Of a DNA stretch of 64,000 nucleotides, positions 16,140 through 62,492 are shown one piece after another. The notes beneath the pieces were generated by a model. That model saw nothing but the letters and a program-made list of their open reading frames with translations, had not been told where the DNA came from and did no database searches. The stretch covers positions 866,713 to 930,712 of the forward strand of contig JACKGF010000001.1 of the NCBI GenBank assembly GCA_020632095.1, given 5' to 3'. Source of the DNA: Candidatus Nomurabacteria bacterium (GTDB lineage: Bacteria > Patescibacteriota > Minisyncoccia > Phycocordibacterales > UBA918). How positions within the stretch are numbered: position 1 is the first letter of the stretch; each line of letters starts with the position of its first letter. The translations under genes and the position numbers were made by a program.

Positions 16140-16553
16140 ATGGCAACAATTCAACAATTAACCCGTAAGAAGCGAGTCGACAAACCGCGAAAAAGTAAGC
16201 GAGCGGCTTTGGAATCTGGATTTAACAAAATCAAGAACCAGCCAAACGAATACTTCTCGCCTTTCAAGCGTGGTGTATGTACCCGTGTAACAACCAAGAC
16301 TCCTCGTAAGCCGAACTCAGCGATTCGAAAGATTGCTCGTGTTCGACTTTCAAATGGTCAGGAAATTACCGCGTACATCCCAGGTATGAAGCACAATCTT
16401 CAAGAACACTCAGTGGTACTGGTGCGTGGAGGTCGTGTGAAAGACATCGGTGTCAACTACACAATCGTTCGTGGAAAATACGATGCGACAGGTGTGAGTG
16501 AACGCCGACGGGGTAGGTCTCGTTACGGAGCAAAGAAACCAAAAGGCGAGTAA
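16140..16553 (+). CDS. rpsL: 30S ribosomal protein S12 (with an ~18-aa internal insertion)
   Basis: …KRGVCTRV…[28 protein letters not shown]…[13 protein letters not shown]… is diagnostic for S12. Confidence 0.95.
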
Positions 16554-16571
16554 TTTTCCTAAACTGAGCAA

Positions 16572-16653
16572 TCTGCTTTGTCTGACTACGGATCGAAAGT
16601 AGTCACCGTACATTTGTACGTTTCCTATTTTCTCCCTTGTCATCCGCGCATAT
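16572..16653 (+). repeat. Intergenic element copy A (CTGCTTTGTC box – CGTAC-attt-GTACG hairpin – CCTTGTC..CGCGCATAT box)
   Basis: Member of a 6-copy family in r-protein spacers; see findings. Confidence 0.5.
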
Positions 16654-16908
16654 TATCTCAGTTAAGAAAAATTCGACCTCATTGTTTCAAAACAAAAAAA
16701 CGTGGAGACGCGAATCTCCGCAAATTACAAATAGTTTATATTCGCTACAGATTATATGACGCGATTCAAGCCGGTGGCTTCGGAATCAAATTATGCGAAG
16801 AATGAAAAAGTGACTTGTCATATTTCTCATTCTTGTTTATCAAGAAGTATAGCCGAGTAGAATAAAAGGAGACTCTTTTATATTCGCTCCGCTCATTAAA
16901 AAATAGCT

Positions 16909-17382
16909 ATGCGACGACCAATTAAAAAACGACCCATAGTATCTCCGGATGTTATGTACAGTTCGGTTGATGTCGAACGTCTCATCAACTACATCATGCT
17001 TCGTGGTCAAAAAGAGACTGCACGCAAGATTGTCTACGGTGCGTTTGAAATCATGAAGAATGCAAAGGATGGAGGAGGCGACCCGCTGGAAGTGTTCAAC
17101 ACAGCAGTGCGGAATGCTGGTCCTTTGATGGAAGTACGTTCTCGTCGAGTTGGTGGTGCAAACTACCAGGTTCCCCGAGAAGTACGACCAGAGCGCCGAA
17201 TGGCTTTGGCTCTAAGATGGATCATTAATGGAGCACGCAAGCAAAAAGGAGTACCAATGCACAAGGCTTTGGCTCAAGAATTGCTTTTGGCCGCTAAGGA
17301 AGAAGGAAACGCAGTGAAGAAGAAGGAAGATACCCACAAGATGGCTGAGGCTAACCGAGCCTTTGCCCACTTCGCTTGGTAA
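16909..17382 (+). CDS. rpsG: 30S ribosomal protein S7
   Basis: S7 family sequence (…[22 protein letters not shown]…); unusually it lies 355 bp downstream of rpsL. Confidence 0.95.
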
Positions 17383-17396
17383 TTCCACAATTGGCG

Positions 17397-17483
17397 TTTG
17401 GCTTCGTCGGTACGGCAAAAATTTAATTCGCTGGACTATACGTCCCACTCATTAAATTTTTACCTAGTCTCCTCGCCACACAT
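17397..17483 (+). repeat. Intergenic element copy F (upstream box – GGAC-tatac-GTCC hairpin – CCTAGTCTCCTCGCCACACAT box)
   Basis: Same tripartite layout and box sequences as copies A-E, but with a different hairpin stem. Confidence 0.4.
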
Positions 17484-17510
17484 TCAATTCTGAAATTCCC
17501 AATAATAAAA

Positions 17511-17568
17511 GGCCGGAGAATTTGTGATCTGTATTTATCGATACAGCTCACAAATTCTCCGGCCTTTT
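17511..17568. terminator. Long palindromic bidirectional terminator after rpsG
   Basis: GGCCGGAGAATTTGTGA…TCACAAATTCTCCGGCC forms a 17-bp stem with an A-run before and TTTTGC after. Confidence 0.6.
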
Positions 17569-17890
17569 GCTTGCGCCCAGTTTTTAAGAAGTGAAACGAC
17601 TATAAAAATGGATATACACCAGTGGTGCATTCGAAAATGAAATCAACAAGATTGAGGGACAGGTTTTTTAATACCTGTCCTACAAATGGAACGGTTATTC
17701 CCCTTGAAGTTGGCTGTTTTAACAACTATTAACAGCCCTTGTTAACAAAAGTTAATAGGTTGAGGGACAATCAATTCTAATGAATGTCCCTCAATTATTG
17801 ATATACTTCTATCAATAAAAAATAAAACTGCGCTGGAGCGCAGTTTAGGGTAGCTGGTGGTAATTTAAGATTTTGATTGAACAGTCCGGT

Positions 17891-18127
17891 TCAATTTTTT
17901 GGTTTTGGAGACTGGGGCGGAAATGCTTTTTTCCAGAGCCTTGCTACTAGGAATCTGGTATAGGTGAGAGTAAGTGCTAGTATGACTATAAACATAAAGT
18001 CACTAACCTCATTAGACTCTAAGAAATTATCAGATTCTCGTAGCGCCACACTGACTAAAATAAAGTTAAATATCACCAGAATGGCGTAAACACAAACAAT
18101 GAACGTAAAGGTTTCGTTATGGAACAT
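17891..18127 (-). CDS. Hypothetical small membrane protein (78 aa)
   Basis: Two hydrophobic helices, with the minus-strand terminator hairpin 17825-17846 directly downstream. Confidence 0.3.
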   Translation of the reverse strand: MFHNETFTFIVCVYAILVIFNFILVSVALRESDNFLESNEVSDFMFIVILALTLTYTRFLVARLWKKAFPPQSPKPKN

Positions 18128-18387
18128 ATTTCCTCCAAGGAGATGGCTTATTGAGCGCAGACATTACAGTATCATCAAATTTGATTACAAACTAGTTTTT
18201 ACAAATCTTTTACCACACCAACTTTATTGAATAAATATGTTGCCGTCTGTGGGGCAAATTCTCTCTTTTCGTATGGTATATGGGGCCTTTCCTCGTCAGG
18301 GGTCACTGTTTTAAAATTTTCCATATACTTTGATTATATATTGCACAAGCTTTAATTTTTCCGAAGGGTGGCCCTTCGATAATCTGA

Positions 18388-18738
18388 CTAATAATCCCTG
18401 CCGTTAAAATTAGTTACTTTTACTAAATCTGTGTCGAAATTTTCTAGGCAGTTTAGATTGATCGAAACCATGTAGTTTCCGTTGCCATCATGACCACGAG
18501 CAAAGGATTGGACACCACAGGTCTTGCAGAAGCGGTGGTCGATGTGTTTCTTGTTGAATTGGTAAGTGGTCAGGTTATCTTCGCCGGATAGGAGCTTGAA
18601 TTGGGCTTCGGGGACAAAGGCGAGCAAAAACCCTTTACGGCTACAATGACTACAATTACACTTCATTCCCTCAGTAAAATCTCCCTCAACTTCGTATTTA
18701 ACAGCGCCGCAATGGCAGCTTCCTTGGTATGTTTTCAT
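18388..18738 (-). CDS. GFA family (CENP-V/glutathione-dependent formaldehyde-activating-like) zinc protein
   Basis: Cys pattern CHCGAV…CNCSHC…CKTCG typical of Gfa-like domains. Confidence 0.7.
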   Translation of the reverse strand: MKTYQGSCHCGAVKYEVEGDFTEGMKCNCSHCSRKGFLLAFVPEAQFKLLSGEDNLTTYQFNKKHIDHRFCKTCGVQSFARGHDGNGNYMVSINLNCLENFDTDLVKVTNFNGRDY

Positions 18739-18790
18739 GATTGAATTTTATCATGATATAATGGATATTATTATCCTAAGGTAAATTTCT

Positions 18791-19081
18791 ATGGAGGGCG
18801 CACCAGCTACAAAAACAGAATCAAACGTAGAGAGCTTAGTAGCTTGGAGGGAACTAAAGTCAGAAGCACCGGCTCAAGCAGAGCGTCTGATGGCTCAGAT
18901 TGATGGTTTTGAAGAGATGGAACTGAAAGATAAAATCGCTGAACTTAAGCAATTATTATCTGAACTATCAGATAATAACGATAATCGTTTTTTGGTAGAG
19001 GAAATTGCAAAGCGGGTTTCAGTTATGGAGGAGCACAGTCGACATAGCAGTCGATTAGCAGAACTCCAATTAACCGCCTAA
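18791..19081 (+). CDS. Hypothetical acidic coiled-coil protein (96 aa)
   Basis: ORF with plausible spacing to its neighbours; no recognisable motif. Confidence 0.35.
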   Translation: MEGAPATKTESNVESLVAWRELKSEAPAQAERLMAQIDGFEEMELKDKIAELKQLLSELSDNNDNRFLVEEIAKRVSVMEEHSRHSSRLAELQLTA

Positions 19082-19100
19082 ATTATTCACTTCGTTCTTT

Positions 19101-20159
19101 TTGTTCCTTATGACTTTTGATTTTGATGCCGAGATAAAACAACATCTTGATGTAGTGCGTACACTAGAACGCACCCCTGGAGTTTTTACCGCTTCCGCCG
19201 ATGATACTTTTTATAACAAAGCGTGGTTGCGTGATATTTATTTCATCACCCTAGGCTTTTTTGAAACTGGTGATATCGAAACGGTGCGCAAGGCTGCCAA
19301 AGCTCTCTTGTCGGTGTTTGTAAAACACAAGGACAAAATTAACTGGGCGATTGAAAATAAGCCTCATGAAGCTTGGCAGTATATCCATGCGCGTTTTCAT
19401 CCTGAGACATTCGAGGAATATTGGGAGGAGTGGGGTAATAGTCAAAATGATGCAGTCGGGGAAGTTTTGAATCTGTTGGTGACTCTAGAACTAATGGGAG
19501 CCAGTGTGATTGAGACTGATGACGAGCGCGAAATGGTGCAGAAGATTATTGATTACTTGGTCAATCTAGAGTATTGGCAGGATGATGACAACGGTATTTG
19601 GGAAGAAAATATGGAAGTGCACGCTTCTTCCGTTGGTTCTGTACTGGCGGCGTTGCAAAAGGCTCGTCAACTAGATTGGCTTCAGGTACCGGAGGAGGTA
19701 ATCACTCAAGGCGAACAAGCTTTGCGAGCATTGTTGCCACGTGAGTCTGCGACTAAGTTTGCTGATTTGGCACTGCTTACTCTCATTTATCCATTTGCCG
19801 TTACGACTGAAGCAGAAACTTTGGAAATCCTTAAAAATGTCGAGTATCACCTAGTGCGTGAAAAAGGCGTGATTCGCTACAAGCTAGACCGATATTACAA
19901 CAACAACCCCGACGGCTACAGCGAAGAAGCCGAATGGTGTTTTGGCTTATCATGGCTAGCAATTATTTATGCGGAACGTGGAGAAAAAGAAAAAGCCTAC
20001 TATTGGTTGCGTCGCGCCAAAGCGGCAGTCACACCAGACGGAAAAGTTCCAGAACTATATTTCTCAAATACCGACCGCCCCAACGAAAACACCCCCCTCG
20101 GCTGGTCTGAAAGTATGTATGTGGTAGCACTGCAAAAGGTGAAGGAGTTGGACAAATAA
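19101..20159 (+). CDS. GH15-like (alpha/alpha)6-barrel glycoside hydrolase family protein
   Basis: Pattern resembles glucoamylase/glucodextranase (GH15) catalytic-domain segments (…WEENMEVHASSVGS…, …CFGLSW…). Confidence 0.5.
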   Translation: MFLMTFDFDAEIKQHLDVVRTLERTPGVFTASADDTFYNKAWLRDIYFITLGFFETGDIETVRKAAKALLSVFVKHKDKINWAIENKPHEAWQYIHARFHPETFEEYWEEWGNSQNDAVGEVLNLLVTLELMGASVIETDDEREMVQKIIDYLVNLEYWQDDDNGIWEENMEVHASSVGSVLAALQKARQLDWLQVPEEVITQGEQALRALLPRESATKFADLALLTLIYPFAVTTEAETLEILKNVEYHLVREKGVIRYKLDRYYNNNPDGYSEEAEWCFGLSWLAIIYAERGEKEKAYYWLRRAKAAVTPDGKVPELYFSNTDRPNENTPLGWSESMYVVALQKVKELDK

Positions 20160-20175
20160 AATCCGATAACACAAG

Positions 20176-20203
20176 AAAACCGGCGCCAATGGCGCCGGTT
20201 TTC
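20176..20203 (+). terminator. Rho-independent terminator
   Basis: AAAACCGGCGCC-aat-GGCGCCGGTTTT. Confidence 0.6.
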
Positions 20204-20221
20204 GTGTGCTAGAATTTTGGT

Positions 20222-20854
20222 ATGTATAAAACTTATTTTAAAAAAGTCGCATATACTCTTTTACTCATTCCGCTTTTTTCTTCTCTGCTAACTTTATTCG
20301 TTCGCTTGTTTTATCTGTGTGCAAATAAATATCTGGTCATAGTAGTATTATTAATAGCTGTGACACTGGCCTGGTTTGCAGCTAAGAAAATGTTGAAAGA
20401 CAAAAAACTGGTAGGACTTATCATTGCACTTTCTATAGTTTCGGTTATTTATGGAGCTGTTTATCTTGGCAGTTTTAACTGTGCCCGTTGCGCTGCCCCA
20501 GAAGCAGGGGTGATGCAATTGATAAGCAACATTAGAGCTCAAGCAGAACTGTACCTAAATAACAATAATTCCTACGTGGGGGTTTGTGATGACAGTCGAG
20601 TAATTGAGCTTGGTAACTCAGCTGATAAATTTATGCGAATTAGTTCGTCAAAATGTTTTGGACCTATAACAAAAATGTTTATGTCTTCAGAGGCCGTCCA
20701 AGAATCTCACTTTGTTTGCAATGATTCTATAGATGAGTATGCGGCTGAGGAGTATGTGCCTAGTCGTGAAAGTTACTACTGCGTTGATTCAACTGGCTTC
20801 GGCGGCCAAGTTCAGAATTCACTCGGCTCTTTAACTAAGTGTGTGGCGGACTAG
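20222..20854 (+). CDS. Membrane protein with Cys-rich extracytoplasmic domain, hypothetical
   Basis: Three N-terminal TM helices, then a C-terminal region with 6+ Cys. Confidence 0.45.
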   Translation: MYKTYFKKVAYTLLLIPLFSSLLTLFVRLFYLCANKYLVIVVLLIAVTLAWFAAKKMLKDKKLVGLIIALSIVSVIYGAVYLGSFNCARCAAPEAGVMQLISNIRAQAELYLNNNNSYVGVCDDSRVIELGNSADKFMRISSSKCFGPITKMFMSSEAVQESHFVCNDSIDEYAAEEYVPSRESYYCVDSTGFGGQVQNSLGSLTKCVAD

Positions 20855-21161
20855 TGTATAACTACTTGAATTTTTGTATATAGAAAAAAGTCAGTGGGCG
20901 ACTCTTTGGTGTGACACACATTACAGGCAGTTTTGCTTTGGTTTAAGTGTCGGTTTCAGGTTAGGATTGAAGTTACGTAATCATTTTTAGTTGTAGGTTG
21001 GTAAAGTTTCTTTGATATAATGTTTGTATATGACGAATAAAGTAATTTATGTATTAGTAGGAGTTGCAGTTATAGCTGCGTTAGTTGGGAGGTTTGCGCT
21101 TTAGTGTTTTGAGAGAGGATAATATAATCGTTTGAATCTGTATTTAGTTTGGTAGAAATGC

Positions 21162-21192
21162 AAAAGGCCGGCGCGAAGCGCCGGCCTTTTGC
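21162..21192. terminator. Bidirectional palindromic terminator
   Basis: GCAAAAGGCCGGCGCG-aa-GCGCCGGCCTTTTGC; a near-identical copy lies at 40604-40630. Confidence 0.55.
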
Positions 21193-21236
21193 ATTTCTTC
21201 AACAAAATAAGCTTGGCGTAGGGGGCAGCATAGTGT

Positions 21237-22733
21237 ATGGTAGTCGCTATGTCACGAAATGATGGAATAATTGTTTTTAAGGGGGTGTCGTATGAATATG
21301 ATGCTACCAAGCCAATTCTTAAAGAGGCGGATTTTGTGGTGCGTCGGGGAGCCAAACTGACTCTAATGGGTCAAAACGGAGCTGGTAAGTCTACTCTTTT
21401 TACTTTAATCACTGGCCAGATTCGCCCTGATGAAGGAATGATAAATATTGAACCCAAAACTACCATTGCGGTATCAAGGCAAATTATCCCGCGCGCTGAG
21501 CTCACTCTCACTGTACGAGCTTTCTTTGAAAAACTGTTTTCAGAAAAAGTCTACGATATTGACCCACGGATTGATGAGGTGTTGGAAGTGGTGAATCTCA
21601 CTCCAACTGAAAAACAGAAAGAAACTTTCAAAGATAGAATCATTGGTAGTTTTTCTGGTGGGCAACAAGCTAGACTGCTATTGGCTTCAGCCTTGATTCA
21701 AAATCCAGATGTTCTTTTGCTCGACGAACCGACTAACAACTTAGATGTCGCGGGAATTGCTCACCTAACCGATTTCCTTAAAGATTATAAGAAGACAGTG
21801 ATCGTTATTTCCCACGATGCTGATTTCCTCAACGCCTTCACTGAAGGGGTGCTTTATCTCAATACACAGAATCGTCAGATTGAACAATACAACGGAAATT
21901 ATCACACGGTGGTGAAAGAAATTGCAGCGCGGGTAGAAAAGGAACAGCGCAAAAATGCTCAATTAGCTAAAGAGATTCAAGCCAATAAAGAAAAGATAAA
22001 CTTCTTTGCTGCCAAGGGAGGTAAGATGCGTCTTGTCGCCAAACGAATGCGTGAGGATATTGAAGAAAGTGAAGAAAATAAAGTCGATGTGAGAAAAGAA
22101 GACAAGACTATTCGACCGTTTACTATCAAACCACACGATGATATTCCCCTTGAAGTAGTGAAGCTCACTTCCTACCAAGTAATTAAAGACCATGAGCCAA
22201 AGCAAGTAGCTTGTGACATTACCCTTAAACGCGGCGAACATTTGCAGATTGTTGGCCCTAACGGAATTGGTAAGACGACTCTACTTGAAAGTCTAGCTGG
22301 TGGTCATGCTAAAGGCGAGGAAGTTGCTCCGGGGGTGAAGATTGGTTATTACCGACAGGATTTCTCAAACCTAGATTTTGACAAAACAGTATCTGAAACA
22401 TTGATGGATTCTATGAAGCTAAAGCTGGAAGAAGATATGCGTTCGATTGCGGCTGGTTTTCTTCTGTTTAAGGATGTGATGAAAACTAAGGTAGGCGACT
22501 TGTCTGAAGGACAAAAAGGCTTAGTGGCTTTTGCTAAGCTTCGGATGGAAGAACCCGGCCTACTGATTCTCGACGAGCCAACCAACCACATCAACTTCCG
22601 TCATATTCCAGTGATTGCCGAAGCGCTCAATGAATACAAAGGAGCCATGATTTTGGTTTCTCACGTCCCTGAGTTTGTAGAAAAAATACGGATTGATGAT
22701 GTGCTCGATTTGAGTAAGTCTAAGAAGAAGTAA
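21237..22733 (+). CDS. ABC-F family ATPase (tandem ABC domains, no TMD; ribosome-associated translation factor type)
   Basis: Two Walker A sites (GQNGAGKST, GPNGIGKTT), two LSGGQ-like signatures and a linker region. Confidence 0.85.
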   Translation: MVVAMSRNDGIIVFKGVSYEYDATKPILKEADFVVRRGAKLTLMGQNGAGKSTLFTLITGQIRPDEGMINIEPKTTIAVSRQIIPRAELTLTVRAFFEKLFSEKVYDIDPRIDEVLEVVNLTPTEKQKETFKDRIIGSFSGGQQARLLLASALIQNPDVLLLDEPTNNLDVAGIAHLTDFLKDYKKTVIVISHDADFLNAFTEGVLYLNTQNRQIEQYNGNYHTVVKEIAARVEKEQRKNAQLAKEIQANKEKINFFAAKGGKMRLVAKRMREDIEESEENKVDVRKEDKTIRPFTIKPHDDIPLEVVKLTSYQVIKDHEPKQVACDITLKRGEHLQIVGPNGIGKTTLLESLAGGHAKGEEVAPGVKIGYYRQDFSNLDFDKTVSETLMDSMKLKLEEDMRSIAAGFLLFKDVMKTKVGDLSEGQKGLVAFAKLRMEEPGLLILDEPTNHINFRHIPVIAEALNEYKGAMILVSHVPEFVEKIRIDDVLDLSKSKKK

Positions 22734-22744
22734 AGATGTCTTAA

Positions 22745-22792
22745 ATCAGTCGTGTGGACCTAGGCCCACACGGCTGATTTTTTGCCGCGATT
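22745..22792 (+). terminator. Rho-independent terminator
   Basis: TCAGTCGTGTGG-acctaggc-CCACACGGCTGA followed by TTTTTT. Confidence 0.6.
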
Positions 22793-22803
22793 CTAGTATA
22801 TTA

Positions 22804-23856: not shown

Positions 23857-23885
23857 TATATCTTGGTTAAAGATTTAGATAAAGA

Positions 23886-23920
23886 AAAACCGCTGATCCC
23901 TGTTGGGAATCAGCGGTTTG
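23886..23920. terminator. Bidirectional terminator
   Basis: AAAAACCGCTGATCCC-tgtt-GGGAATCAGCGGTTT. Confidence 0.55.
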
Positions 23921-23942
23921 AAGTTAAAGAACAATGGCTTTT

Positions 23943-53104: not shown

Positions 53105-53114
53105 TCACATATAT

Positions 53115-53798: not shown

Positions 53799-53799
53799 T

Positions 53800-54177
53800 A
53801 TGGCTCTCTTCAGTCTTAAAAAAGAAACTCCGAAAGAGAACGCGGCTGATGCTCCAAAGGTAAAAGTGAACGTGTCAAAAGCACTAGTAACTGACCGGAA
53901 CATCTCTGCTGTCATCGAACGACCACGTATTACTGAGAAATCAGTTAAACTAAGTGAGCAAAATGTATACACCTTTACGGTGAAGCGAAACGCTACTAAG
54001 TTTTCGGTCCGAGATGCAGTAATAGCGCTCTACAACGTGACGCCGGTGAAGGTAAACATCGTCAATAAAAAACCTGCGAAACGCCTAGTTGGCAGTCGGA
54101 ATCGTGTGAAGCACGCCCCGGGTGTAAAGAAGGCTTACGTATATCTTAAAAAAGGTGACACCATTAATCTTGTCTAG
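53800..54177 (+). CDS. rplW: 50S ribosomal protein L23 (N-terminal extension)
   Basis: The L23 core …VIERPRITEKS…YTFTV…ATK…AV… is present; position between rplD and rplB. Confidence 0.9.
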   Translation: MALFSLKKETPKENAADAPKVKVNVSKALVTDRNISAVIERPRITEKSVKLSEQNVYTFTVKRNATKFSVRDAVIALYNVTPVKVNIVNKKPAKRLVGSRNRVKHAPGVKKAYVYLKKGDTINLV

Positions 54178-54180
54178 TAT

Positions 54181-55059: not shown

Positions 55060-55083
55060 ATCTAACAAGTGCATTAAAGCAAC

Positions 55084-55116
55084 AAAAAACCACTGGCCTT
55101 GGCCAGTGGTTTTTGT
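55084..55116 (+). terminator. Rho-independent terminator directly after rplB
   Basis: AAAAAACCACTGGCC-tt-GGCCAGTGGTTTTTG. Confidence 0.65.
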
Positions 55117-55205
55117 TGTATAAGATACAGGATACTTTCTTAGAAGGGGTGCTTTTAAAATTTGATATAGTGATACAATAGACCCAATTATTAATATCAA
55201 GTTTT

Positions 55206-56663
55206 ATGTTTATGAAATCCTTTGGTTTTACTCAATCGACACATTATTTTATTGGCCTAGTTATTTTGTCTACGTTATTGGCGATACCGTCGGTTTCAGC
55301 AGCTCAAACCGCAAACGAGTGTTCATTTTCTCGGACGCTTGAAGATGGAGTAGATGGTGAGGATGTTCGCTGTCTGCAAAAGTACCTAAACGATAATGGC
55401 TTTGTGATTGCTGAGAGTGGGCCGGGTGCGGTTGGTCACGAAACAAACCTTTTTCGAACTCTTACTAAAGAAGCAGTAGTAAAGTGGCAGAAAGCCAAGA
55501 ATGTAAATCCAGCTAGTGGTGTGTTTGGCCCACAATCACAAGCGGCTTATTTGTTGGATTTAATTGCAAAGATTGAAGGTAAAAAAGCTGATACAGTGGC
55601 TGTTGCTACCGCTCCGACCCCAGCTCCACAAGTAGCCGGTATCTCTACTAGCGCTATAGACGAAAATAAAAACAAGGGTGAATCTATTCTTAAAGATGCA
55701 TTTAAAATGATGCGTGACGCAGAAAAGCAAGTTGATGACCTTGATGATGAGAGTAAGCTAGCTAAGCTAAATAAAAATTTAACTGATGCAAGAATAGATT
55801 TGTATGACGCTCTAGAAAGTTTTTTCGACGAGGATTACAAAAATGCTTATGCTAGTGGTCAAGATGCACTTGATGCTGCAAGTAAGGTGTTTGAAAAGGC
55901 TGGCGGGGAGACATATGAGAGTAAGGCGGATGATGTCCTTAGTGATGTGACTGATTTACTTGAGGATGTACAAGGTTTGTATTCAGATGCTAAAGACAAC
56001 AAAGCTGATGTAGGTGACTCTAAGAAAATGATCAGTGAGGCCGAAGATTTGTTAAATGATGCCCAAGATGAATTTGATAAACGTGGCTACAAGCAGGCTA
56101 TTAGTGATGCTCTAGATGCTGAAGAAATTCTCAATGACGCCAAAGACGAAATTGATTTTGTTGGCGAAAAAGATGTTGAAGGTTATATAGAAGAGGTCCG
56201 CAATGAACTTGATGACGCTGAAGATGAAATCAATGACGCGGATGATGATGGCGAAGATGTGGATGACGCCTGGGATTTGTTTAAAGATGCTGAAAAGAAA
56301 TTAAACAAGGCTGATCTGGCTATAGATGATGAAGAATATCTAGATGCACAGAATTACGCCGAAGACGCTCAGGATCTAATAGATGAAGCTTTGGATTCAA
56401 TTAGTGGTTCAAGTAGTGGTGATGAGAAGAAGGCAAAAAAAGCTGTTGCAAATGCCTGGGATGATTATGATGATGCAAAAAATGATATTAGTGATGCCGA
56501 AGACGATGGTGACAATATGGACGATGCTTGGGATTTGCTCAAGGATGCTAAGAAAAAACTAAACAAAGCTGACGATTCATACGATGATGAAGAATATCAA
56601 GATGCTCTTGATTACGTTGATGATGCAGAGGACTTGATTGATGAGGCGTTGGATGAGTTGTAG
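55206..56663 (+). CDS. Secreted peptidoglycan-binding-domain protein with a long acidic (Asp/Glu-rich) tandem-repeat region
   Basis: Signal peptide, a PG_binding_1-like segment (…DGEDVRCLQKYLNDNGF…), then two ~65-aa near-identical acidic repeats (…DDAWDLxKDAxKKLNKAD…DDEEYxDAxxYxxDAxDLIDEALD…). Confidence 0.6.
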   Translation: MFMKSFGFTQSTHYFIGLVILSTLLAIPSVSAAQTANECSFSRTLEDGVDGEDVRCLQKYLNDNGFVIAESGPGAVGHETNLFRTLTKEAVVKWQKAKNVNPASGVFGPQSQAAYLLDLIAKIEGKKADTVAVATAPTPAPQVAGISTSAIDENKNKGESILKDAFKMMRDAEKQVDDLDDESKLAKLNKNLTDARIDLYDALESFFDEDYKNAYASGQDALDAASKVFEKAGGETYESKADDVLSDVTDLLEDVQGLYSDAKDNKADVGDSKKMISEAEDLLNDAQDEFDKRGYKQAISDALDAEEILNDAKDEIDFVGEKDVEGYIEEVRNELDDAEDEINDADDDGEDVDDAWDLFKDAEKKLNKADLAIDDEEYLDAQNYAEDAQDLIDEALDSISGSSSGDEKKAKKAVANAWDDYDDAKNDISDAEDDGDNMDDAWDLLKDAKKKLNKADDSYDDEEYQDALDYVDDAEDLIDEALDEL

Positions 56664-56678
56664 GAAGGGAAGGTAACC

Positions 56679-56716
56679 AAAAAGTCGGTAGTTCGCAAAG
56701 CGAACGGCCGACTTTT
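56679..56716. terminator. Bidirectional terminator
   Basis: AGTCGGTAGTTCGC-aaa-GCGAACGGCCGACT followed by TTTTT. Confidence 0.55.
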
Positions 56717-56718
56717 TG

Positions 56719-57036
56719 CTACACGCCCGGCAAACGCTCCCTTTCCTTAAACACAAATTCCCGGAGTGATTTTGCTTTCTTTAACTCATTAATGATTATT
56801 GTTGGGTTTTCTATGTGAACAGCTACTTTCTGGACGCTCTGTCCAGTGATGATGAGTTCGCAGCCAGCTGGGGTGTAGACAATGGTTACAAACCGATGGC
56901 CGTTTTTATTACGGCTAGTGGTTTTGATTTCGCCGGGGGCAATCATTTTCACCCCAGCAATTTTCTCCACCACCTGCACCACTAAATCAGCTGTTTCGGT
57001 GAGGGTGGTGTGTTCATGACCGCGGGGTTTTGGCAT
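56719..57036 (-). CDS. Hypothetical protein (105 aa)
   Basis: ORF with plausible spacing; no motif recognised. Confidence 0.4.
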   Translation of the reverse strand: MPKPRGHEHTTLTETADLVVQVVEKIAGVKMIAPGEIKTTSRNKNGHRFVTIVYTPAGCELIITGQSVQKVAVHIENPTIIINELKKAKSLREFVFKERERLPGV

Positions 57037-57124
57037 ACTGATAGGGTAGCATATTTGTTGCTAGTGTATGTAAAATAATAAAGGCAACCCGAAGGTTGCC
57101 TTGTGGCCGGCTTTTAACTGTGGT

Positions 57125-57427
57125 TCATTTCGTCTTGGCCGGTATTCTGAAGTTGGCAATCGTCATACCGGTTAGGTTTTGTCGATAAGGTAAATTGAGT
57201 TTGAATCTGCTCGCTATATTCTTGAGGAGACTCTCAATATCGAACGCTGCCAGTTCTGAATCCGGCGGAAAGCCGATTTCTACTTCAACGCCAGCAGTCT
57301 TATTTGTCGTGTATAGCTGGTAATTCTGAAACCTCCCTTTTCTCCGCAAGTTGAACCATCTTGTAATAAGGTCGGCTAGAGAAGGCCTGACTTTTTTCGG
57401 TCGCTGCTCCGTATTTTCTCGCGTCAC
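57125..57427 (-). CDS. Hypothetical basic protein (100 aa)
   Basis: ORF only. Confidence 0.35.
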   Translation of the reverse strand: MTRENTEQRPKKVRPSLADLITRWFNLRRKGRFQNYQLYTTNKTAGVEVEIGFPPDSELAAFDIESLLKNIASRFKLNLPYRQNLTGMTIANFRIPAKTK

Positions 57428-57590
57428 TTTTCGTCCTTTTTTATATGGTTAACTAAAGAACATAACACCCCTAAACCATTTCAAGGGTCTGCGTAATATA
57501 CAACAAATATTCTTTGCAATCCACAATAATTTTTTGGATAAGACTGAGTAATGGATGTGATGTGGGTGTTTTTGAGGTGTACGATATACA

Positions 57591-57613
57591 AAAAAGCGAC
57601 CCTTAGGGTCGCT
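57591..57613 (-). terminator. Terminator for the minus-strand gene ending at 57646
   Basis: On the minus strand, GCGACCC-taa-GGGTCGC is followed by TTTTTT. Confidence 0.5.
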
Positions 57614-57645
57614 CTCTAAGTCCTTTTCGGACTAGGTGTTGGTAA

Positions 57646-57927
57646 TTACTGCTGGTGACGCAATAAGCAGACAGCAGCTTTAGGTGTTATGGTCATGTAC
57701 TCGATCGTGGTACCATTTACTTTACTGCAGAGTACCCTGATCATTCCTGTTTCTTCTTCGTTAAGTTGCTCTCCTTCTTGATGGGTGAAGCGGATGAGTG
57801 TTGCTCCGTGTCTTCCCATAGTTTTAAACTGTAAGTAAGGATAATCCCTAACTAACTTTCTCTCAATCTGATCAAAAGTTTTTGGTTCAACAAATCTTGT
57901 TTTCACAAGCACGTTTCCTTCAGACAT
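57646..57927 (-). CDS. Hypothetical protein (93 aa)
   Basis: ORF with a downstream terminator; no motif recognised. Confidence 0.4.
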   Translation of the reverse strand: MSEGNVLVKTRFVEPKTFDQIERKLVRDYPYLQFKTMGRHGATLIRFTHQEGEQLNEEETGMIRVLCSKVNGTTIEYMTITPKAAVCLLRHQQ

Positions 57928-58573
57928 GGATCATTCTCCAGTGGTTTATTTTAAGAACAGCAAAGCTTTGTTCGAGTTTTATATAATCACTATTTTTTAA
58001 GAGTGTAAAGGGTTGTATTGGTAGTAAAGGAGCTACAAAGCGGACGCCTTTAGAAAGGGTAGCAAAACCTCGCCTTTTTGCCGGAGAACCCAATTTTATC
58101 GTTGACTTTTCGGGGAATTTCAAGTATTCTCATCCCTGTTCCAACCTCAGTGAGGAGAAGTGTCACCTCACAAGATGAAGAAGAAAAAGGTTAAAATCTG
58201 TTGGGAGTCCCTGTAAGGATAGCCGTTAACTGTCTTTACAAGAGATTCCCTTCAACCGCACCCAAAGTGCGGGTTTATAGGTAGTTGAAGAACTACAAAA
58301 TTATAAATTAATTAGGGGTTGTGGTGAGTATTTATAAAGGATGTTCCAAGAATAAGGTAGATAGCACTGTAATAAGCGTTTGATCACCTTTTCCAGGAAT
58401 CGGCGGCGGGCTAAAGCCGCCGATTCGGAACTAAATTCTGAGCAGCCCGCTACATGCTATTTCTCCCCTAGGAAGGGGTCGAAATATCATAAGCGTCTGC
58501 ATAAGCAAAATATAGTCGTAGCTTCGCTACTCCTGATTTTGCTTAATACTCATCACGCTCCTTAAAATTAAAA

Positions 58574-58903
58574 ATGTCACGATCACTCTATAAAGGACCA
58601 TACATAGACGAAAAACTCCTCAAAAAGATCGCCGGAAAAAAACCCGGAGAGGGTGGTGTCATCAAGACTTGGGCTCGCGGCTCAGTCATCTCACCAGAAA
58701 TGGTCGGATTCAAATTTGGTGTACATAACGGACGAGATCATATCGAAGTTTTAGTCGCCGAAGAAATGGTAGGACACAAGTTTGGAGAATTTTCACCAAC
58801 TAAAAAATTCCATCGACACGGAGGTAAGATGCAGAAAGAGCTTGAGCAGAAGAAGAAGGCCGCAGAAATTGCAGCAGCTAAGGCAGCTAAGACCACTAAA
58901 TAA
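58574..58903 (+). CDS. rpsS: 30S ribosomal protein S19 (Lys/Ala-rich C-terminal extension)
   Basis: …[18 protein letters not shown]…[25 protein letters not shown]… matches S19. Confidence 0.9.
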
Positions 58904-58908
58904 TCAGT

Positions 58909-59235
58909 ATGAAAGCATTTCTAAAAAACTATCGTCAGTCACCGCGTAAGGTTCGCCTTATCGCTGGCTTGGTACGAGGAAAAAATACTACTGATGCTAT
59001 CGCTACTCTACAATTTGTTGACAAGCGAGCAGCTGACCCCTTTGCTAAAGTGATTAAGTCTGCTGTAGCCAATGCTAAGGTGCAAGGAAAAGATGTTGAA
59101 AAGCTTTTTGTTAAAACTGTTTCAGTTGACAAGGGGACCATCATCAAGCGATCAATGCCACGGGCTCGTGGATCAGCATCGCGAATTAATAAGCGTAATA
59201 GCCATATCTCAGTCGAGCTCGGCGAGAAGAAATAA
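58909..59235 (+). CDS. rplV: 50S ribosomal protein L22
   Basis: L22 pattern (…YRQSPRKVRLIAGLVRGK…); position in the S10-operon order. Confidence 0.9.
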   Translation: MKAFLKNYRQSPRKVRLIAGLVRGKNTTDAIATLQFVDKRAADPFAKVIKSAVANAKVQGKDVEKLFVKTVSVDKGTIIKRSMPRARGSASRINKRNSHISVELGEKK

Positions 59236-59241
59236 AAAGAT

Positions 59242-59952
59242 ATGACACACGTAGCACATCCATATATCCAACGGATTGGGGTAAACCGAGACTGGAAGAG
59301 TCGATGGTTTACTACTAGCCCGTTGAAGTTCCGCGAATATCTCCGCGTTGATGCCGCTCTTAGAAAGATGCTGGATAAGCGTCTGAAGGGAATGTCAGTT
59401 GATGCAATCGAGATTGAACGTAGTGAAAAGGATATTCGTATCATTATAAAAACTTCACGTCCTGGACTAGTGATTGGTCGCAGTGGCGAAGGTATCACCA
59501 AGCTAAAGAAAGAAATTGACCTATTTTTGCGTAAGCAAAAAATGACAGATAAGTCTGAGCTTAAAGTTGATATTGAAGAAATTCGATCACCAGAATCAAG
59601 CGCACAAATTGTTGGGCAAATGATTGCTGAGGGACTTGAAAAGCGCATGACATTCCGTCGTGTGATGAAGCAGACAGCCGAGAAAGTGATGGCTAACCGT
59701 GACGTTGAAGGAATCCGTGTGATTCTCTCAGGACGTCTTGGTGGAGCTGACATGGCTCGCAAGGAAGAAATCAAAAAAGGTCGAGTCCCATTGCAAACTC
59801 TCCGAGCTGATATTGACTTCGCTCGGGTAGCTGCCAATCTACCTTACGGTGTTATTGGTATTAAGGTTTGGATTTATCGTGGAGAAGTGTTTGCTGACCG
59901 CAAGGCTGGCCAGAAGGATACTGAAGCACGGTTGAGTCACACCAGTAAATAA
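59242..59952 (+). CDS. rpsC: 30S ribosomal protein S3
   Basis: KH domain plus S3 C-terminal domain (…GIRVILSGRLGGADMAR…). Confidence 0.95.
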   Translation: MTHVAHPYIQRIGVNRDWKSRWFTTSPLKFREYLRVDAALRKMLDKRLKGMSVDAIEIERSEKDIRIIIKTSRPGLVIGRSGEGITKLKKEIDLFLRKQKMTDKSELKVDIEEIRSPESSAQIVGQMIAEGLEKRMTFRRVMKQTAEKVMANRDVEGIRVILSGRLGGADMARKEEIKKGRVPLQTLRADIDFARVAANLPYGVIGIKVWIYRGEVFADRKAGQKDTEARLSHTSK

Positions 59953-59958
59953 ACATAT

Positions 59959-60393
59959 ATGTTATTTCCAAAGAAAGTAAAACACCGCAAGTGGCAAGTT
60001 GGCCGCATGAGTGAAGAAAAGCGTAGTCGTCCAGACACCAGAGGTATTACCGTTTCATATGGTTCATATGGCCTTAAGGCGACAACTGATTCACGTGTTA
60101 AGTCAAACCAGATTGAAGCAGCTCGTCGAGTTATTTCACGAACTATGGGTAAGGTTGGTAAGACATGGATTCGTATTTTCCCAGACCGGCCAGTTACTCA
60201 TAAAGCGGCTGAAGTACCGATGGGTAAGGGTAAAGGAGATCCTGACCACTTCGTATTTGAAGTGCGACCAGGACGAATTATATTTGAGGTTGACGGAGTG
60301 TCAGAAGACATAGCTCGCGAAGCCTTCAGAAAGGCTTGCGCTAAGCTACCATTACAAGGAAAATTCGTGCGTCGTGAAGACACACGAGTGTAA
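59959..60393 (+). CDS. rplP: 50S ribosomal protein L16
   Basis: …MLFPKKVKHRK…RMGKGKGDPDHFV… matches L16. Confidence 0.95.
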   Translation: MLFPKKVKHRKWQVGRMSEEKRSRPDTRGITVSYGSYGLKATTDSRVKSNQIEAARRVISRTMGKVGKTWIRIFPDRPVTHKAAEVPMGKGKGDPDHFVFEVRPGRIIFEVDGVSEDIAREAFRKACAKLPLQGKFVRREDTRV

Positions 60394-60405
60394 GTACTGA
60401 TTGTT

Positions 60406-60606
60406 ATGACAAACATGAAAGATATTCAAAAAAAGTCAGACACTGAATTGATCGAAATGGTCAAGACAGATCGCGACACAGTACGTCAGGAACGTTTCAA
60501 GGATAAATTTAGTCGCAAGGCTAGTATTATCCGAACAGCAAAAACTGGCATCGCTCGTGCTCTGACTGAGCTCAACGTTCGTCGACGTAATCAAGAAACT
60601 AAATAG
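60406..60606 (+). CDS. rpmC: 50S ribosomal protein L29
   Basis: Small helical protein (…KSDTELIEMVK…ELNVRRRN…) in the conserved position between rplP and rpsQ. Confidence 0.8.
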   Translation: MTNMKDIQKKSDTELIEMVKTDRDTVRQERFKDKFSRKASIIRTAKTGIARALTELNVRRRNQETK

Positions 60607-60609
60607 CGT

Positions 60610-60867
60610 ATGAGTACTGAAGAAACAACCAATAACAATGGTCGCGTGCTCCGCGGAAAAGTAGTGGCTTCTAAAATGACTGATACCATTACTGTCGCAG
60701 TTGAGCGATACGTGAAGCACCCAAAATACAAGAAGTTCCTACGACGCACGAAGAAGTTCCTAGTGCATGATGCAGGAAACAAAGCGAAGGTAGGTGAAAC
60801 GGTCGAAATTAAAGAAGTCCGCCCAATCTCAAAGCGAAAAAGCTTCGAGCTTATAACCACAAAGTAA
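60610..60867 (+). CDS. rpsQ: 30S ribosomal protein S17
   Basis: …RVLRGKVVASKMTDTITVAVER…HPKYKK… matches S17. Confidence 0.9.
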   Translation: MSTEETTNNNGRVLRGKVVASKMTDTITVAVERYVKHPKYKKFLRRTKKFLVHDAGNKAKVGETVEIKEVRPISKRKSFELITTK

Positions 60868-60868
60868 T

Positions 60869-61240
60869 ATGATTCAGCCACAAACAATCGTAAAGATTAC
60901 TGACAACTCCGGAGCAAAGTCAGGCCGAGTCTTCAAGGTACTTGGTGGTTCAAAAAAGCGTTACGCTGAAATCGGAGAAATGGTGGTACTGGCTGTCCAG
61001 ACTGCAGAACCACGCAAGCAAGTGAAGAAGAAGGATGTCGTGTACGGAATTATTGTCCGACAACGCAAGCCGTTCAGGCGGAAGGATGGTTCTTATGTAA
61101 GCTTTGACGACAACGCAGTGGTGTTAGTCGACAAAGAAAAGAAGCAACCAAAAGCCAACCGTGTGTTTGGTCCAATTCCTCGCGAACTAGGTGAGGCTGG
61201 TTATCAGAAGATTGTATCTCTAGCCCCAGAGGTGGTTTAA
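60869..61240 (+). CDS. rplN: 50S ribosomal protein L14
   Basis: MIQPQTIVKITDNSGAK… is a canonical L14 start. Confidence 0.95.
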   Translation: MIQPQTIVKITDNSGAKSGRVFKVLGGSKKRYAEIGEMVVLAVQTAEPRKQVKKKDVVYGIIVRQRKPFRRKDGSYVSFDDNAVVLVDKEKKQPKANRVFGPIPRELGEAGYQKIVSLAPEVV

Positions 61241-61259
61241 AAGTTTAAAATTCGTGTAT

Positions 61260-61337
61260 TGCTTGGTTGTGACGAAAATTTTATTTCATCGTACAGGTGT
61301 ACGACTCAATAAAATTTCTTTGCACGCCTCGCACTAC
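61260..61337 (+). repeat. Intergenic element copy C (TGCTTGGTTGTGACG – CGTAC-aggt-GTACG – CTTTGCACGCCTCGCACTA)
   Basis: Between rplN and rplX, where the spacer is normally only a few bp. Confidence 0.5.
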
Positions 61338-61387
61338 ATCCAATTTTAAGATTTTTAAACTCAGCAAGATTCATAAAAAATAACAAT

Positions 61388-61699
61388 ATGAAAATCAAAA
61401 AAGGAGACACAGTAAAAGTGATTGCTGGAAAGGACAAAGGAAAAACTGGTGAAGTCTCGATTGCGCTTAAAGACACCAATCAAGTGGTGGTCGAAGGAGT
61501 AAACGAAGTGAAACGACACCAGAAGAACACCCGTTCTCGTTCACAAGGTCAAATCATTGAAAAGAGTATGCCAATTCACGCTTCAAACGTTGCACTCATG
61601 GAAGGTAAGAAAACTGTTCGAGTGGGATATATCTTCGAAGGTGAAGGTGATAAGCGAAAGAAAGTGCGAGTTGCTCGACCATCGGGCAAAAAAATCTAG
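61388..61699 (+). CDS. rplX: 50S ribosomal protein L24
   Basis: MKIKKGDTVKVIAGKDKGKTGEV… matches L24 (KOW motif). Confidence 0.9.
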   Translation: MKIKKGDTVKVIAGKDKGKTGEVSIALKDTNQVVVEGVNEVKRHQKNTRSRSQGQIIEKSMPIHASNVALMEGKKTVRVGYIFEGEGDKRKKVRVARPSGKKI

Positions 61700-61724
61700 C
61701 CGAAATGAAGAACTTGGCGAATTT

Positions 61725-61790
61725 CGTTGTCGCTACGCTAGTGTGGTCGGTCGCCGTATAAAAATACGTCTTCCTCACACACAAGCTAGG
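61725..61790 (+). repeat. Intergenic element copy E (CGTTGTCGCTACG – CGTAT-aaaa-ATACG – CTTCCTCACACACAAG)
   Basis: Variant hairpin stem (CGTAT/ATACG) with the same layout; between rplX and rplE. Confidence 0.4.
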
Positions 61791-61855
61791 CTCCTAGAAC
61801 TTCACTCAAGTTATTCATTTCTTAAGTTAATAGGTAAATCAATTAAAAATAGAGT

Positions 61856-62419
61856 ATGGAATCAGTACAGGCTCGCCTCAAAACAGTATTTGAAGTCATG
61901 AAAGGTGACTTTGGATACGGAAATGTAAATGAGGCTGCAACAATTGAAAAAGTCGTTATCTCAGTCGGAACCGGCCGAGTCGATGACAAAGCAAAAATCG
62001 CCCTTATCCAAGATCGTCTAGCAAAAATCACTGGACAGAAAGCCGCTCCTCGAGCCGCTCGTCAGTCTATCGCTGCTTTCAAGTTGCGTGAAGGTGATAT
62101 TGTTGGTTATCAAGTAACTCTTCGTGGAAAGCGCATGATTCACTTCCTAGATAAGTTGATTCACATCGCTATCCCACAAACTCGCGACTTCCGTGGCCTC
62201 AAAGCTACTTCAATCGACGAGATGGGTAACTACACACTAGGAATCAAGGAACACACTATTTTCCCAGAAACAGTTGATGAAGATATTCGCGACGTGTTCG
62301 GAATGTCTATCACAATTGTAACTACCGCCAAGACCAAGCCAGAAGCCGACACACTCCTCCGACACATCGGAATGCCTCTAGCTAAGGCAGAAGAAAAGGT
62401 GAGGAAAGGGAAGAAGTAG
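61856..62419 (+). CDS. rplE: 50S ribosomal protein L5
   Basis: L5 family sequence (…NVNEAATIEKVVISVGTG…GYQVTLRGKRM…). Confidence 0.95.
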   Translation: MESVQARLKTVFEVMKGDFGYGNVNEAATIEKVVISVGTGRVDDKAKIALIQDRLAKITGQKAAPRAARQSIAAFKLREGDIVGYQVTLRGKRMIHFLDKLIHIAIPQTRDFRGLKATSIDEMGNYTLGIKEHTIFPETVDEDIRDVFGMSITIVTTAKTKPEADTLLRHIGMPLAKAEEKVRKGKK

Positions 62420-62457
62420 CAACTGAAATTAATTCAGAAGACAGGAAAACAAAAAAC

Positions 62458-62492
62458 AAAAGGGCGACACCTAGGTGTTGCCCTTTTGTTTT
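62458..62492 (+). terminator. Rho-independent terminator after rplE (spc-type operon ends here)
   Basis: AAAAGGGCGACA-cctagg-TGTTGCCCTTTTGTTTT. Confidence 0.65.

Follow-up and report, generated by a model that had tools for sequence, protein, structure and literature searches.

The adjacency of rpsJ to rplC and of rplB to rpsS is among the most stable gene linkages, and the ribosomal-protein cluster that contains them serves as a single syntenic marker block for phylogeny and binning in the candidate phyla radiation (CPR). A locus in which both linkages are broken and the gene order is kept raises the question of what made the cuts, and of whether they belong to one genome or to its lineage. 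The str-S10-spc super-cluster described here is such a locus. It lies in a stretch of 64,000 nucleotides (nt), the whole of which was analysed and is called the window below, from a genome labelled Candidatus Nomurabacteria, of the Paceibacteria group of the Patescibacteria (CPR). The 80 best genome matches to the ribosomal protein L2 of the window are all metagenome-assembled genomes of the Paceibacteria group, mostly labelled Nomurabacteria, Kaiserbacteria, Paceibacterota or Parcubacteria, with a minority carrying other labels. The reading that we favour, at a probability of roughly three in four, is that the super-cluster has been re-partitioned into separate units with order and orientation kept, that the boundaries between units are made of a terminator, a promoter and a leader, and that the gaps at these boundaries are permissive.

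The ribosomal genes were identified by NCBIfam equivalog models, with scores above their cut-offs, and rpmC by Pfam (Ribosomal_L29); the scores are moderate, which points to a divergent lineage. All 18 of the 18 str-S10-spc genes are present on the plus strand in canonical order (rpsL-rpsG-fusA-tuf-rpsJ-rplC-rplD-rplW-rplB-rpsS-rplV-rpsC-rplP-rpmC-rpsQ-rplN-rplX-rplE). The first unit consists of rpsL (16140-16553; TIGR00981) and rpsG (16909-17382; TIGR01029), and the second of fusA, encoding EF-G (45742-47907; TIGR00484, 1024 bits). The third is formed by tuf (48162-49352) and rpsJ (49513-49863), the latter being an S10-domain open reading frame (ORF) at 49501-49863 with its probable start ATG at 49513. 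The fourth runs from rplC (52481-53104) through rplD and rplW to rplB, which ends at 55059, and the fifth from rpsS (58574-58903) through rplV, rpsC, rplP, rpmC (60406-60606), rpsQ, rplN and rplX to rplE, which ends at 62419. An earlier sequence-only reading of this DNA had placed every ribosomal gene that it named where the models find it, with rpsL-rpsG 28 kb from fusA; it had also seen the cuts, and only its count of four blocks needs correction to five units, as a fifth terminator and a promoter split fusA from tuf. The contiguity of a canonical S10 operon, in which rpsJ to rpsQ form one unit with spacers of tens of nt, is not seen in the window. The boundaries measure 2.6 kb at rpsJ|rplC, 3.5 kb at rplB|rpsS and 28 kb at rpsG|fusA, and each of the two S10-internal gaps holds a terminator, opposite-strand genes and a promoter.

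The cuts fall at fixed sites across the lineage. They were compared in 80 species-representative loci, in which L2 is 68-84% identical to that of the window and the window proteins were located by tblastn; a break was defined as a junction gap of at least 200 nt, and the denominators are the relatives examined at each junction. The rpsJ|rplC junction is broken in 49/49 relatives (median 1606 nt, range 220-6439 nt), rplB|rpsS in 47/47 (median 2309 nt, range 246-9941 nt) and fusA|tuf in 30 of 31 (median 1087 nt, range 112-4562 nt). Nine other junctions have no gap of at least 200 nt in any relative, and just 3-5 borderline values occur at rplD|rplW and rplW|rplB. Inside the rpsS-rplE block no junction reaches 200 nt in the 39-45 relatives, the internal gaps of the rplC-rplB unit have medians of 22-24 nt, and tuf and rpsJ are always tightly linked (48 relatives; median gap 110 nt, maximum 242 nt). 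The same breaks are present in a closed chromosome (CP060229, locus L008). Moreover, the smallest boundaries found in relatives, of 220-290 nt, have about the length that terminator, promoter and leader occupy in the window; such minimal boundaries presumably contain no inserted gene, which suggests that the regulatory partition, rather than the inserted genes, defines the break.

The age of the cuts can be judged from more distant contigs, collected in a metagenome scan with S7, in which L2 is 55-61% identical. In 5/10 of them rpsJ lies only 9-33 nt from rplC, and in most of them rpsG adjoins fusA; the split is therefore derived within the Patescibacteria, though old. The cuts go back to the ancestor of a large Paceibacteria clade; they did not arise as insertions in the window genome alone. 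The synteny comparison with relatives, which the sequence-only reading had itself named as the check on its proposal of lineage-specific insertions, thus speaks against that proposal for the breakpoints, interrupted in 49/49 and 47/47 relatives, and bears it out for what the gaps contain. The distance between rpsG and fusA is graded: it measures 10-2000 nt in the distant contigs, rises to 0.3-5.5 kb where S7 identity is 76-78%, exceeds 4-10 kb where this identity is 80% or above, and is 28 kb in the window. The 28-kb separation is confined to the closest relatives, those with at least 80% S7 identity having no fusA within 4-10 kb after rpsG.

What the boundaries share is a set of predicted signals, all read on the plus strand. 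Terminator hairpins lie after rpsG (17506-17573, the hairpin itself at 17506-17569; -44.5 kcal/mol, z -10.6, with a U tract), after rpsJ (50002-50035; a 15-bp perfect stem, with -31.0 kcal/mol for the 51-nt fold 49995-50045), after rplB (55085-55114; bidirectional, -26.2 kcal/mol and z -6.2 for the 48-nt fold 55078-55125) and after rplE (62458-62492; -27.9 kcal/mol and z -8 for the 51-nt fold 62450-62500). These are the four that had been noted by eye at 17511, 50003, 55084 and 62458, and all of them do fold as strong hairpins of A tract, GC stem and U tract, with z between -6 and -10.6. The fifth stands directly after fusA (47929-47959, GCAGGUGGCCCCUUCGGGGCCGCCUGUUUUU; 61-nt fold 47905-47965, -29.5 kcal/mol, z -6.4), and hairpins at the equivalent place are visible in the alignment of the relatives. 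Downstream, conserved -35/-10 pairs occur at a fixed distance 5' of the tuf, rplC and rpsS leaders. The predicted tuf promoter has a -35 box CTTGCAAAA at 47962-47970 and an extended -10 box TGGTACCAT at 47982-47990, and its form across relatives is CTTGCAAAA/TGGTACTAT; that of rplC has CTTGCGG at 52264-52270 and GTATACT at 52286-52292; that of rpsS has TTGACTTTT at 58102-58110 and GTATTCT at 58124-58130, with the form TTGAC.../GTAyTmT across relatives. At the heads of the first two units, a promoter-like site read from the sequence 5' of rpsL (16095-16122, CCCTTGCAAAAATACCTATCTATAGTAT) has a -35 of the CTTGCAAAA type, as in the tuf and rplC promoters, and overlaps a weaker site from the promoter scan, and the same scan gives a promoter-like site TTGAAA-17-TATAGT 5' of fusA (45599-45627).

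The leader that was studied most closely is that of rplC. The 226 nt 5' of this gene are kept at the DNA level in dozens of relatives, and the structured part (52298-52430, plus strand) has a minimum free energy (MFE) of -77 kcal/mol and z -7. Its predicted parts are a helix P0 (AGACC/GGUC), a hairpin P1, a conserved loop CCAAUGGGCA, a long stem P2 formed by CAAACCGCGCG and CGCGCGGUUUG and followed by UUGU, and a hairpin P3 (GCGAGC-UUGU-GCUCGC). A first pass with MAFFT and RNAalifold recovered the core of P2 only, the hairpins varying in length, and hence the structure was specified by hand in a covariance model, R1, built on 14 sequences. R1 matches 69 loci (E<5e-9), once per locus, on the plus strand and always just upstream of rplC. 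In the resulting alignment 94% of cells are in standard pairs (a somewhat inflated figure, as discussed below) and 23 of 29 pairs show double (compensatory) changes; none of 500 shuffles was as good, and slid controls pair at 22-47%. On the distant contigs in which rpsJ adjoins rplC, R1 has no match, and its single weak match among the distant contigs falls on L164, the one with a 1.1-kb gap.

Two further observations concern the same leader. Sequestration of the ribosome-binding site (RBS) by its 5' GACCUA was considered and rejected, the pairing being present in the MFE fold of the window only; when 65 relatives were folded with the partition function, the GACCUA-RBS pairing had a probability of 0.06 on average, and pairing at other places in the leader had 0.78. 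Furthermore, a metagenome contig of the same species (L088) differs from the window at 52285-52297 by a small indel that falls precisely between the -10 box and the first nt of the leader, which indicates strain-level variation at the predicted transcription start of rplC.

Structured leaders also precede tuf and rpsS. Promoter and leader of tuf (leader 47996-48161, plus strand, about 170 nt) are conserved in an alignment of 46 sequences, the window and 45 relatives, and among the 26 pairs that RNAalifold predicts from 35 sequences, 23 show compensatory changes. Promoter and leader of rpsS together take up 58102-58573 on the plus strand, and the leader has a conserved core at 58137-58290 followed by about 280 nt of less conserved sequence up to the start codon. 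Its core comprises a 5' motif GUUCCAACCUCA, a variable hairpin, a long hairpin H2 with an apical GCCGUUA(A/C)C, and a GC hairpin with a U run at 58256-58280. H2, capped by GGCCGUUACC, has 18 pairs of which 15 are compensatory; this count, like that for tuf, comes from RNAalifold, the shuffle and slide controls belonging to the rplC leader. About 40 relatives share the rpsS promoter and the motifs, and the loop motif is confined to the L001-L079 group, the clade that carries the split. The conserved loops of the leaders are CCAAUGGGCA/GUAUGGGUC, GGCCGUUACC and GCGCGAYGUUCUCGCGCC. A fourth leader, heading the block that follows rplE in relatives, is likely: two ORFs of L001, the closest other species, were taken as rpsN and rpsH and have homologues in 28 relatives, and in about 20 of the 28 (L001-L079) a conserved hairpin GUCACC..UCU..GGUGAUAC lies 40-70 nt 5' of the rpsN-like ORF, with the rpsH-like ORF next.

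No Rfam family matches the window at gathering thresholds, and a permissive search of the three leaders against the 4227 families of Rfam 15 (E 1 for tuf and rpsS, E 10 for rplC) returned chance hairpins only, among them MIR4380 (25.8 bits, gathering threshold 83) and L20_leader (17 bits, threshold 58.7). The leaders have the position, on the same strand and at a fixed site, and the covariation expected of ribosomal-protein leaders (r-leaders), and the predicted promoters would make them 5' untranslated regions.

Under the proposed re-partitioning, each unit would close with a strong intrinsic terminator and the next would open with a sigma-70-type promoter and then a long structured 5' leader. 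The separately transcribed units would be rpsL-rpsG, fusA, tuf-rpsJ, rplC-rplD-rplW-rplB, rpsS to rplE and, beyond the window, a unit starting with rpsN. The leaders would most likely be operators for feedback, each bound by a protein of its own unit, as the S10 leader of Escherichia coli responds to L4, and the terminator-like GC stem and U run present in two of them, those of rplC and rpsS, suggest that attenuation of transcription is involved. Since the boundaries already hold a terminator and a promoter, inserted DNA would leave the expression of the ribosomal genes undisturbed, and the boundaries would behave as permissive sites with rapid gain and loss of genes, mostly for secreted or envelope proteins. 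The regulatory re-wiring that the sequence-only reading had offered beside insertion is supported, at the level of sequence, by the conserved promoter and structured leader at tuf, rplC and rpsS.

The strongest competitor holds that the cluster is still one long operon, in which the plus-strand inserts are co-transcribed passengers and the elements upstream of the blocks serve RNA processing or stability, or act as internal translation enhancers. The conserved order and orientation of all ribosomal blocks are what would be expected if read-through mattered; GH379, PGB485 and sORF55, three inserted genes described below, are co-oriented with the ribosomal genes, and hairpins also occur within units (tuf|rpsJ and rplN|rplX), so some RNA structure in the cluster is not linked to promoters. 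Yet a polymerase reading through would have to pass, at the block ends, five highly stable terminator hairpins followed by U tracts, besides gaps of up to 6-10 kb and 28 kb, and read-through would produce antisense collisions with the genes that lie convergently in the gaps, SemiSWEET and, in 35 of 47 relatives, o105. The -35/-10 pairs conserved at a fixed distance 5' of each leader also argue against it, and we regard a single operon as unlikely.

Recent insertions specific to this genome, that is, mobile or horizontal DNA that landed in the intact operons of one organism, are less probable still as an account of the cuts. Such insertions do account for the gap contents, which are largely species-specific (a homologue of GH379 in 1/80 relatives, and of SemiSWEET, o93 and o171 in 0/80), include a block of raised G+C (47-55% at 29-39.5 kb) within the rpsG|fusA stretch, and are matched after rplE by a tellurium-resistance-like (ter-like) cluster absent from L001. 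For the breakpoints, however, the explanation is refuted: all 47-49 relatives have them, including those with as little as 68% L2 identity, the putative regulatory RNAs at the boundaries are conserved across relatives, and in Pfam and Rfam scans neither the gaps nor their flanks showed a transposase, an integrase or a tRNA gene.

The integrity of the assembly was checked against independent contigs, obtained from other samples with other pipelines. They are collinear with the window, at 99.4-100% identity, over 11395-27382, 50354-54802 and 53457-64000; among them, the 15-kb contig L092 is 100% identical over 13989-27382, and contigs L087 and L088 span 50354-54802. Short-read contigs of the same organism end within 50354-50650, the repeat-bearing part of the rpsJ|rplC gap. 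The junctions, for which the sequence-only reading had advised a check for mis-assembly, are thus backed by independent assemblies, save for the edge at 49864-50353. An artefact of mis-assembly or chimeric binning, in which foreign DNA became attached to the blocks, has a negligible probability. In spite of this edge and of the short-read contig ends beside it, independent assemblies agree over rpsG plus 10 kb, from SemiSWEET to rplW and from rplD to 7 kb past rplE; a database protein 100% identical to o105 has its record on a 997-kb contig, and every relative, including the closed chromosome, has the same breaks.

Several points weigh against the re-partitioning that we prefer. The left edge of the rpsJ|rplC gap (49864-50353, 490 nt) is the sole stretch that no independent contig covers. 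The promoters and terminators are sequence predictions, and a generic promoter scan is not enriched over shuffles in the region (42 sites, 36 expected), so the promoter argument rests on conservation across species. The alignments of the leaders are model-fitted or derive from the same sequences, and their pairing percentages are somewhat inflated. As regards attenuation, the long P2 stem is conserved in the rplC leader as a structure that forms constitutively; termination at it would need relief, and no alternative anti-terminator pairing was found. In the window, the GC hairpin with U run of the rpsS leader has -10.3 kcal/mol and z -1.9 and is weak.

The nearest functional model for the rplC leader is the S10 leader of E. 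coli, through which L4 exerts autoregulation by attenuation and by translational control; the ribosomal-protein regulatory RNAs of E. coli are mostly confined to the Gammaproteobacteria (PMC3616713). The two have in common a structured 5' leader, a terminator-like hairpin and an operon with rplC-rplD-rplW-rplB. The E. coli leader, on the other hand, precedes rpsJ and controls 11 genes through rpsQ, whereas here rpsJ belongs to the tuf unit, one leader precedes rplC and a second precedes rpsS, and there is no similarity in sequence or in Rfam. Closer in position are two candidates of Eckert and Weinberg (2020; PMC7247131), an L4 candidate of Archaeoglobi directly 5' of rplC-rplD-rplW-rplB, with S10 outside that operon, and an L2 candidate of Alphaproteobacteria 5' of rplB-rpsS-rplV-rpsC; their r-leader survey holds no motif from CPR/Patescibacteria. 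The leaders described here are the same kind of element, with the same type of evidence (covariation and position), but they come from other lineages and have other structures.

A break between rpsJ and rplC with the tuf-rpsJ linkage kept also has parallels elsewhere. In Archaea and in cyanobacteria and plastids the S10 gene shares a transcript with the EF-Tu/EF-1alpha (str) unit, L3 being the first gene of the large cluster; these lineages are not known to have additional breaks at rplB|rpsS or fusA|tuf. Unlike theirs, the break described here is derived inside the Patescibacteria and not inherited, given the distant relatives in which rpsJ lies 9-33 nt from rplC. A further parallel is the way in which operons come apart in Gammaproteobacteria and Bacilli, where a few genes invade the boundary between operons and full separation follows later; bfd-bfr and ilv-leu are such invaders between str and S10 (Brandis et al., 2019, PMC6735719; Brandis, 2021, PMC8046335). 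The graded rpsG|fusA distances fit this pattern of invasion and drift. Those cases are insertions between classical operons, whereas two of the boundaries here lie inside the classical S10 operon, are fixed in the clade and carry new putative regulatory RNAs.

The finding is more general than the sequence-only reading supposed, and it is of a known type, namely ribosomal-protein operons with autoregulatory leaders, rather than a new category of system. We found no earlier description in the literature of a fragmented ribosomal cluster or of r-leaders in CPR. The three well-supported new structured RNA motifs offer a handle on how ribosome synthesis is balanced in uncultured ultra-small symbionts, and the coexistence at the same sites of minimal boundaries and of larger ones with gene turnover amounts to a natural experiment in operon splitting, which extends the model of invading a boundary and then drifting apart to boundaries newly made inside an operon. 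A practical caution also follows for the use of the cluster as a marker, as in this clade the "ribosomal block" is a place where contigs can often be expected to end or to change in content, and the short-read contigs here do break in the gaps. A bolder proposal, which we put forward only tentatively and consider doubtful as a whole, is that the Paceibacteria clade has replaced classical S10/str control with a modular scheme of at least three, and probably four, new classes of autoregulatory leader (tuf, rplC, rpsS and rpsN), each sensing a different ribosomal protein or EF-Tu, and that the conserved antisense DUF2103-like gene of the rplB|rpsS gap is a dedicated ribosome-associated or regulatory factor and not a passenger.

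The contents of the gaps turn over rapidly. Over all loci, the two S10-internal gaps hold 400 ORFs in 290 families, of which three recur: o105, the peptidoglycan (PG)-binding acidic protein and sORF55. The rpsJ|rplC gap (50036-52263) begins with a bidirectional hairpin (50153-50182) and sORF55, an unannotated plus-strand ORF of 55 amino acids (aa) with a hydrophobic C-terminal segment (50285-50452), whose homologues (tblastn, 48-72% identity) lie in the same gap of 12 close relatives. It is followed by modest repeats at 50504-50695, a 57-nt unit present twice and a flanking 23-nt direct repeat. The description of this part as a repeat-filled non-coding stretch of 0.7 kb does not hold, given the conserved ORF inside it and the modest repeats. 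The stretch 49864-50758 was considered as a mobile element and not so classed, as it has no copy elsewhere within the window and is partly coding (sORF55).

Most of the other descriptions of gap genes proved accurate. The convergent small membrane gene (50759-51049, minus strand) is a SemiSWEET by its domain match (MtN3_slv/PQ-loop), with a homologue in none of the 80 relatives. The supposed secreted glycoside hydrolase, GH379, is a plus-strand protein of 379 aa with an N-terminal hydrophobic helix (51115-52254). It has no Pfam or PDB sequence match and no sequence-level family assignment; its AlphaFold model (predicted local distance difference test, pLDDT, 89.6) matches GH5_18, GH39 and PslG structures in a Foldseek search of the PDB (E~1e-13, template-modelling (TM) score about 0.6). 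The model has the features of clan GH-A, namely a predicted (beta/alpha)8 barrel with a putative acid/base Glu after strand 4 and nucleophile Glu after strand 7, and the residues N181-E182 (the NE motif) and E283 are invariant in 24 homologues.

In the rplB|rpsS gap, the acidic-repeat PG-binding protein is likewise as described: PGB485 (55206-56663, plus strand) is a secreted protein of 485 aa with acidic helical repeats and PG_binding_1 and DUF4398 domains, and its homologues occur in the cluster gaps of 14 relatives, 12 in rplB|rpsS and 2 in rpsJ|rplC. As to the three small minus-strand ORFs reported beside it, only o105 is conserved across species; o93 (57646-57927) is species-specific and is called as a gene in same-species contigs, o100b (57125-57427) is doubtful and not called there, and o67 is also without support. 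Neither o100b nor o93 has a Pfam match or a homologue in 160 related loci.

The most persistent resident of the gaps is o105 (105 aa, 56719-57036, minus strand), a probable DUF2103-family gene that runs antisense to its ribosomal neighbours. It occupies the rplB|rpsS gap, always on the minus strand, in 35/47 relatives; the 12 that lack it are the most distant ones. Aligned with 31 database homologues, the protein of the window shows 60-76% identity. In total 628 database homologues were found, many with PF09876; most of the close ones carry a precomputed PF09876 match, and one is named DUF2103 domain-containing protein by NCBI, the window protein itself scoring 19.1 bits against a cut-off of 22.4. 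Its conserved motifs are RG.EHTTLTETA, IKMIAPG, SGQ..QKVAVH and FKERERKPG. The members in the clade lack cysteines, which is at odds with the family label "metal-binding", and the AlphaFold model (pLDDT 81) has no significant fold match in the PDB.

A different family fills the gaps of 12 Kaiserbacteria-like relatives (L034-L039, L051, L053, L057 and L067-L069). It is a multi-copy family of secreted proteins present in both S10-internal gaps, with 26 copies on the plus strand, an N-terminus made of a signal or anchor and then (A)QW.(A/G)PT..AP..N..APIN.G, and no member in the window.

The rpsG|fusA gap (17574-45590) holds about 28 kb of non-ribosomal genes. Pfam identifies among them GFA, GH15, an ABC-F protein, phosphoribosyl pyrophosphate (PRPP) synthetase, ADP-ribosylglycohydrolase, PP2C, GIY-YIG and PadR, together with an NAD-salvage cluster (NrtR, NAD kinase, nicotinate phosphoribosyltransferase (NAPRTase) and NAD synthase), a PspC-LRR protein and a disulphide reductase-VTT fusion. 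The NAD salvage/ADP-ribose genes lie at 26113-34104 and include, besides those four, a TrmB regulator, a NUDIX protein and the ADP-ribosylglycohydrolase. The G+C content is 47-55% over about 29000-39500, against about 42% in other parts of the window, and the cluster is a candidate horizontally acquired island within the gap.

Beyond rplE, the window contains a 145-aa protein gene (62553-62990) at the start of the rplE|rpsN gap and a HAD-IIIA phosphatase gene (63457-63921), both on the plus strand. An independent 40-kb contig, L176, continues past the latter with TerC, a 402-aa protein, a 62-aa protein, TerD, a 368-aa protein and vWA-TerF; this ter-like cluster of the window species lies at 10627-15885 of L176, beyond the end of the window. 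The observation that the cluster stops after rplE is borne out, as window and L176 together show no rpsN or rpsH for at least 7 kb downstream. In L001, from which the ter-like cluster is absent, rpsN lies about 1 kb after rplE; relatives have 0.3-4 kb of variable genes after rplE and then ORFs that match in size rpsN, rpsH, rplF, rplR, rpsE, rplO and secY.

Some spacers within the units also deserve mention. The rpsL|rpsG spacer (16554-16908) is unusually long at 355 nt; it measures 150-500 nt in close relatives and 10-100 nt in distant ones, and DNA-level conservation was not seen among the few loci covering it. In E. coli S7 regulates at this spacer, and by analogy its long counterpart may be another operator. 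The tuf|rpsJ (49388-49450) and rplN|rplX (61272-61333) spacers, both intra-operon, share a 63-nt segment that is 76% identical and folds as a long hairpin, rich in AU and tipped by GUACG...CGUAC (z -3.9 and -4.4). The rplX|rplE spacer, unusually long as well, contains at 61716-61808 an element of about 95 nt with copies 71-81% identical in relatives (L021 10296-10389, L036 13556-13643, L003 10179-10271, L007 17978-18077 and L002 16177-16290). The copies stand in either orientation and at differing intergenic sites (5' of rpsS or rplX|rplE), which suggests a small mobile or palindromic intergenic element.

Upstream of the ribosomal genes, the first part of the window (1-5768) carries a type IV pilus set, consisting of a T2SSE ATPase, the platform protein T2SSF and a pair of proteins that carry N-terminal methylation motifs; Big_1 and CarboxypepD_reg domains are present in one of the pair. 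The gene for a competence channel, ComEC, follows at 11355-12845, and type IV pilus and ComEC are the usual DNA-uptake equipment of CPR.

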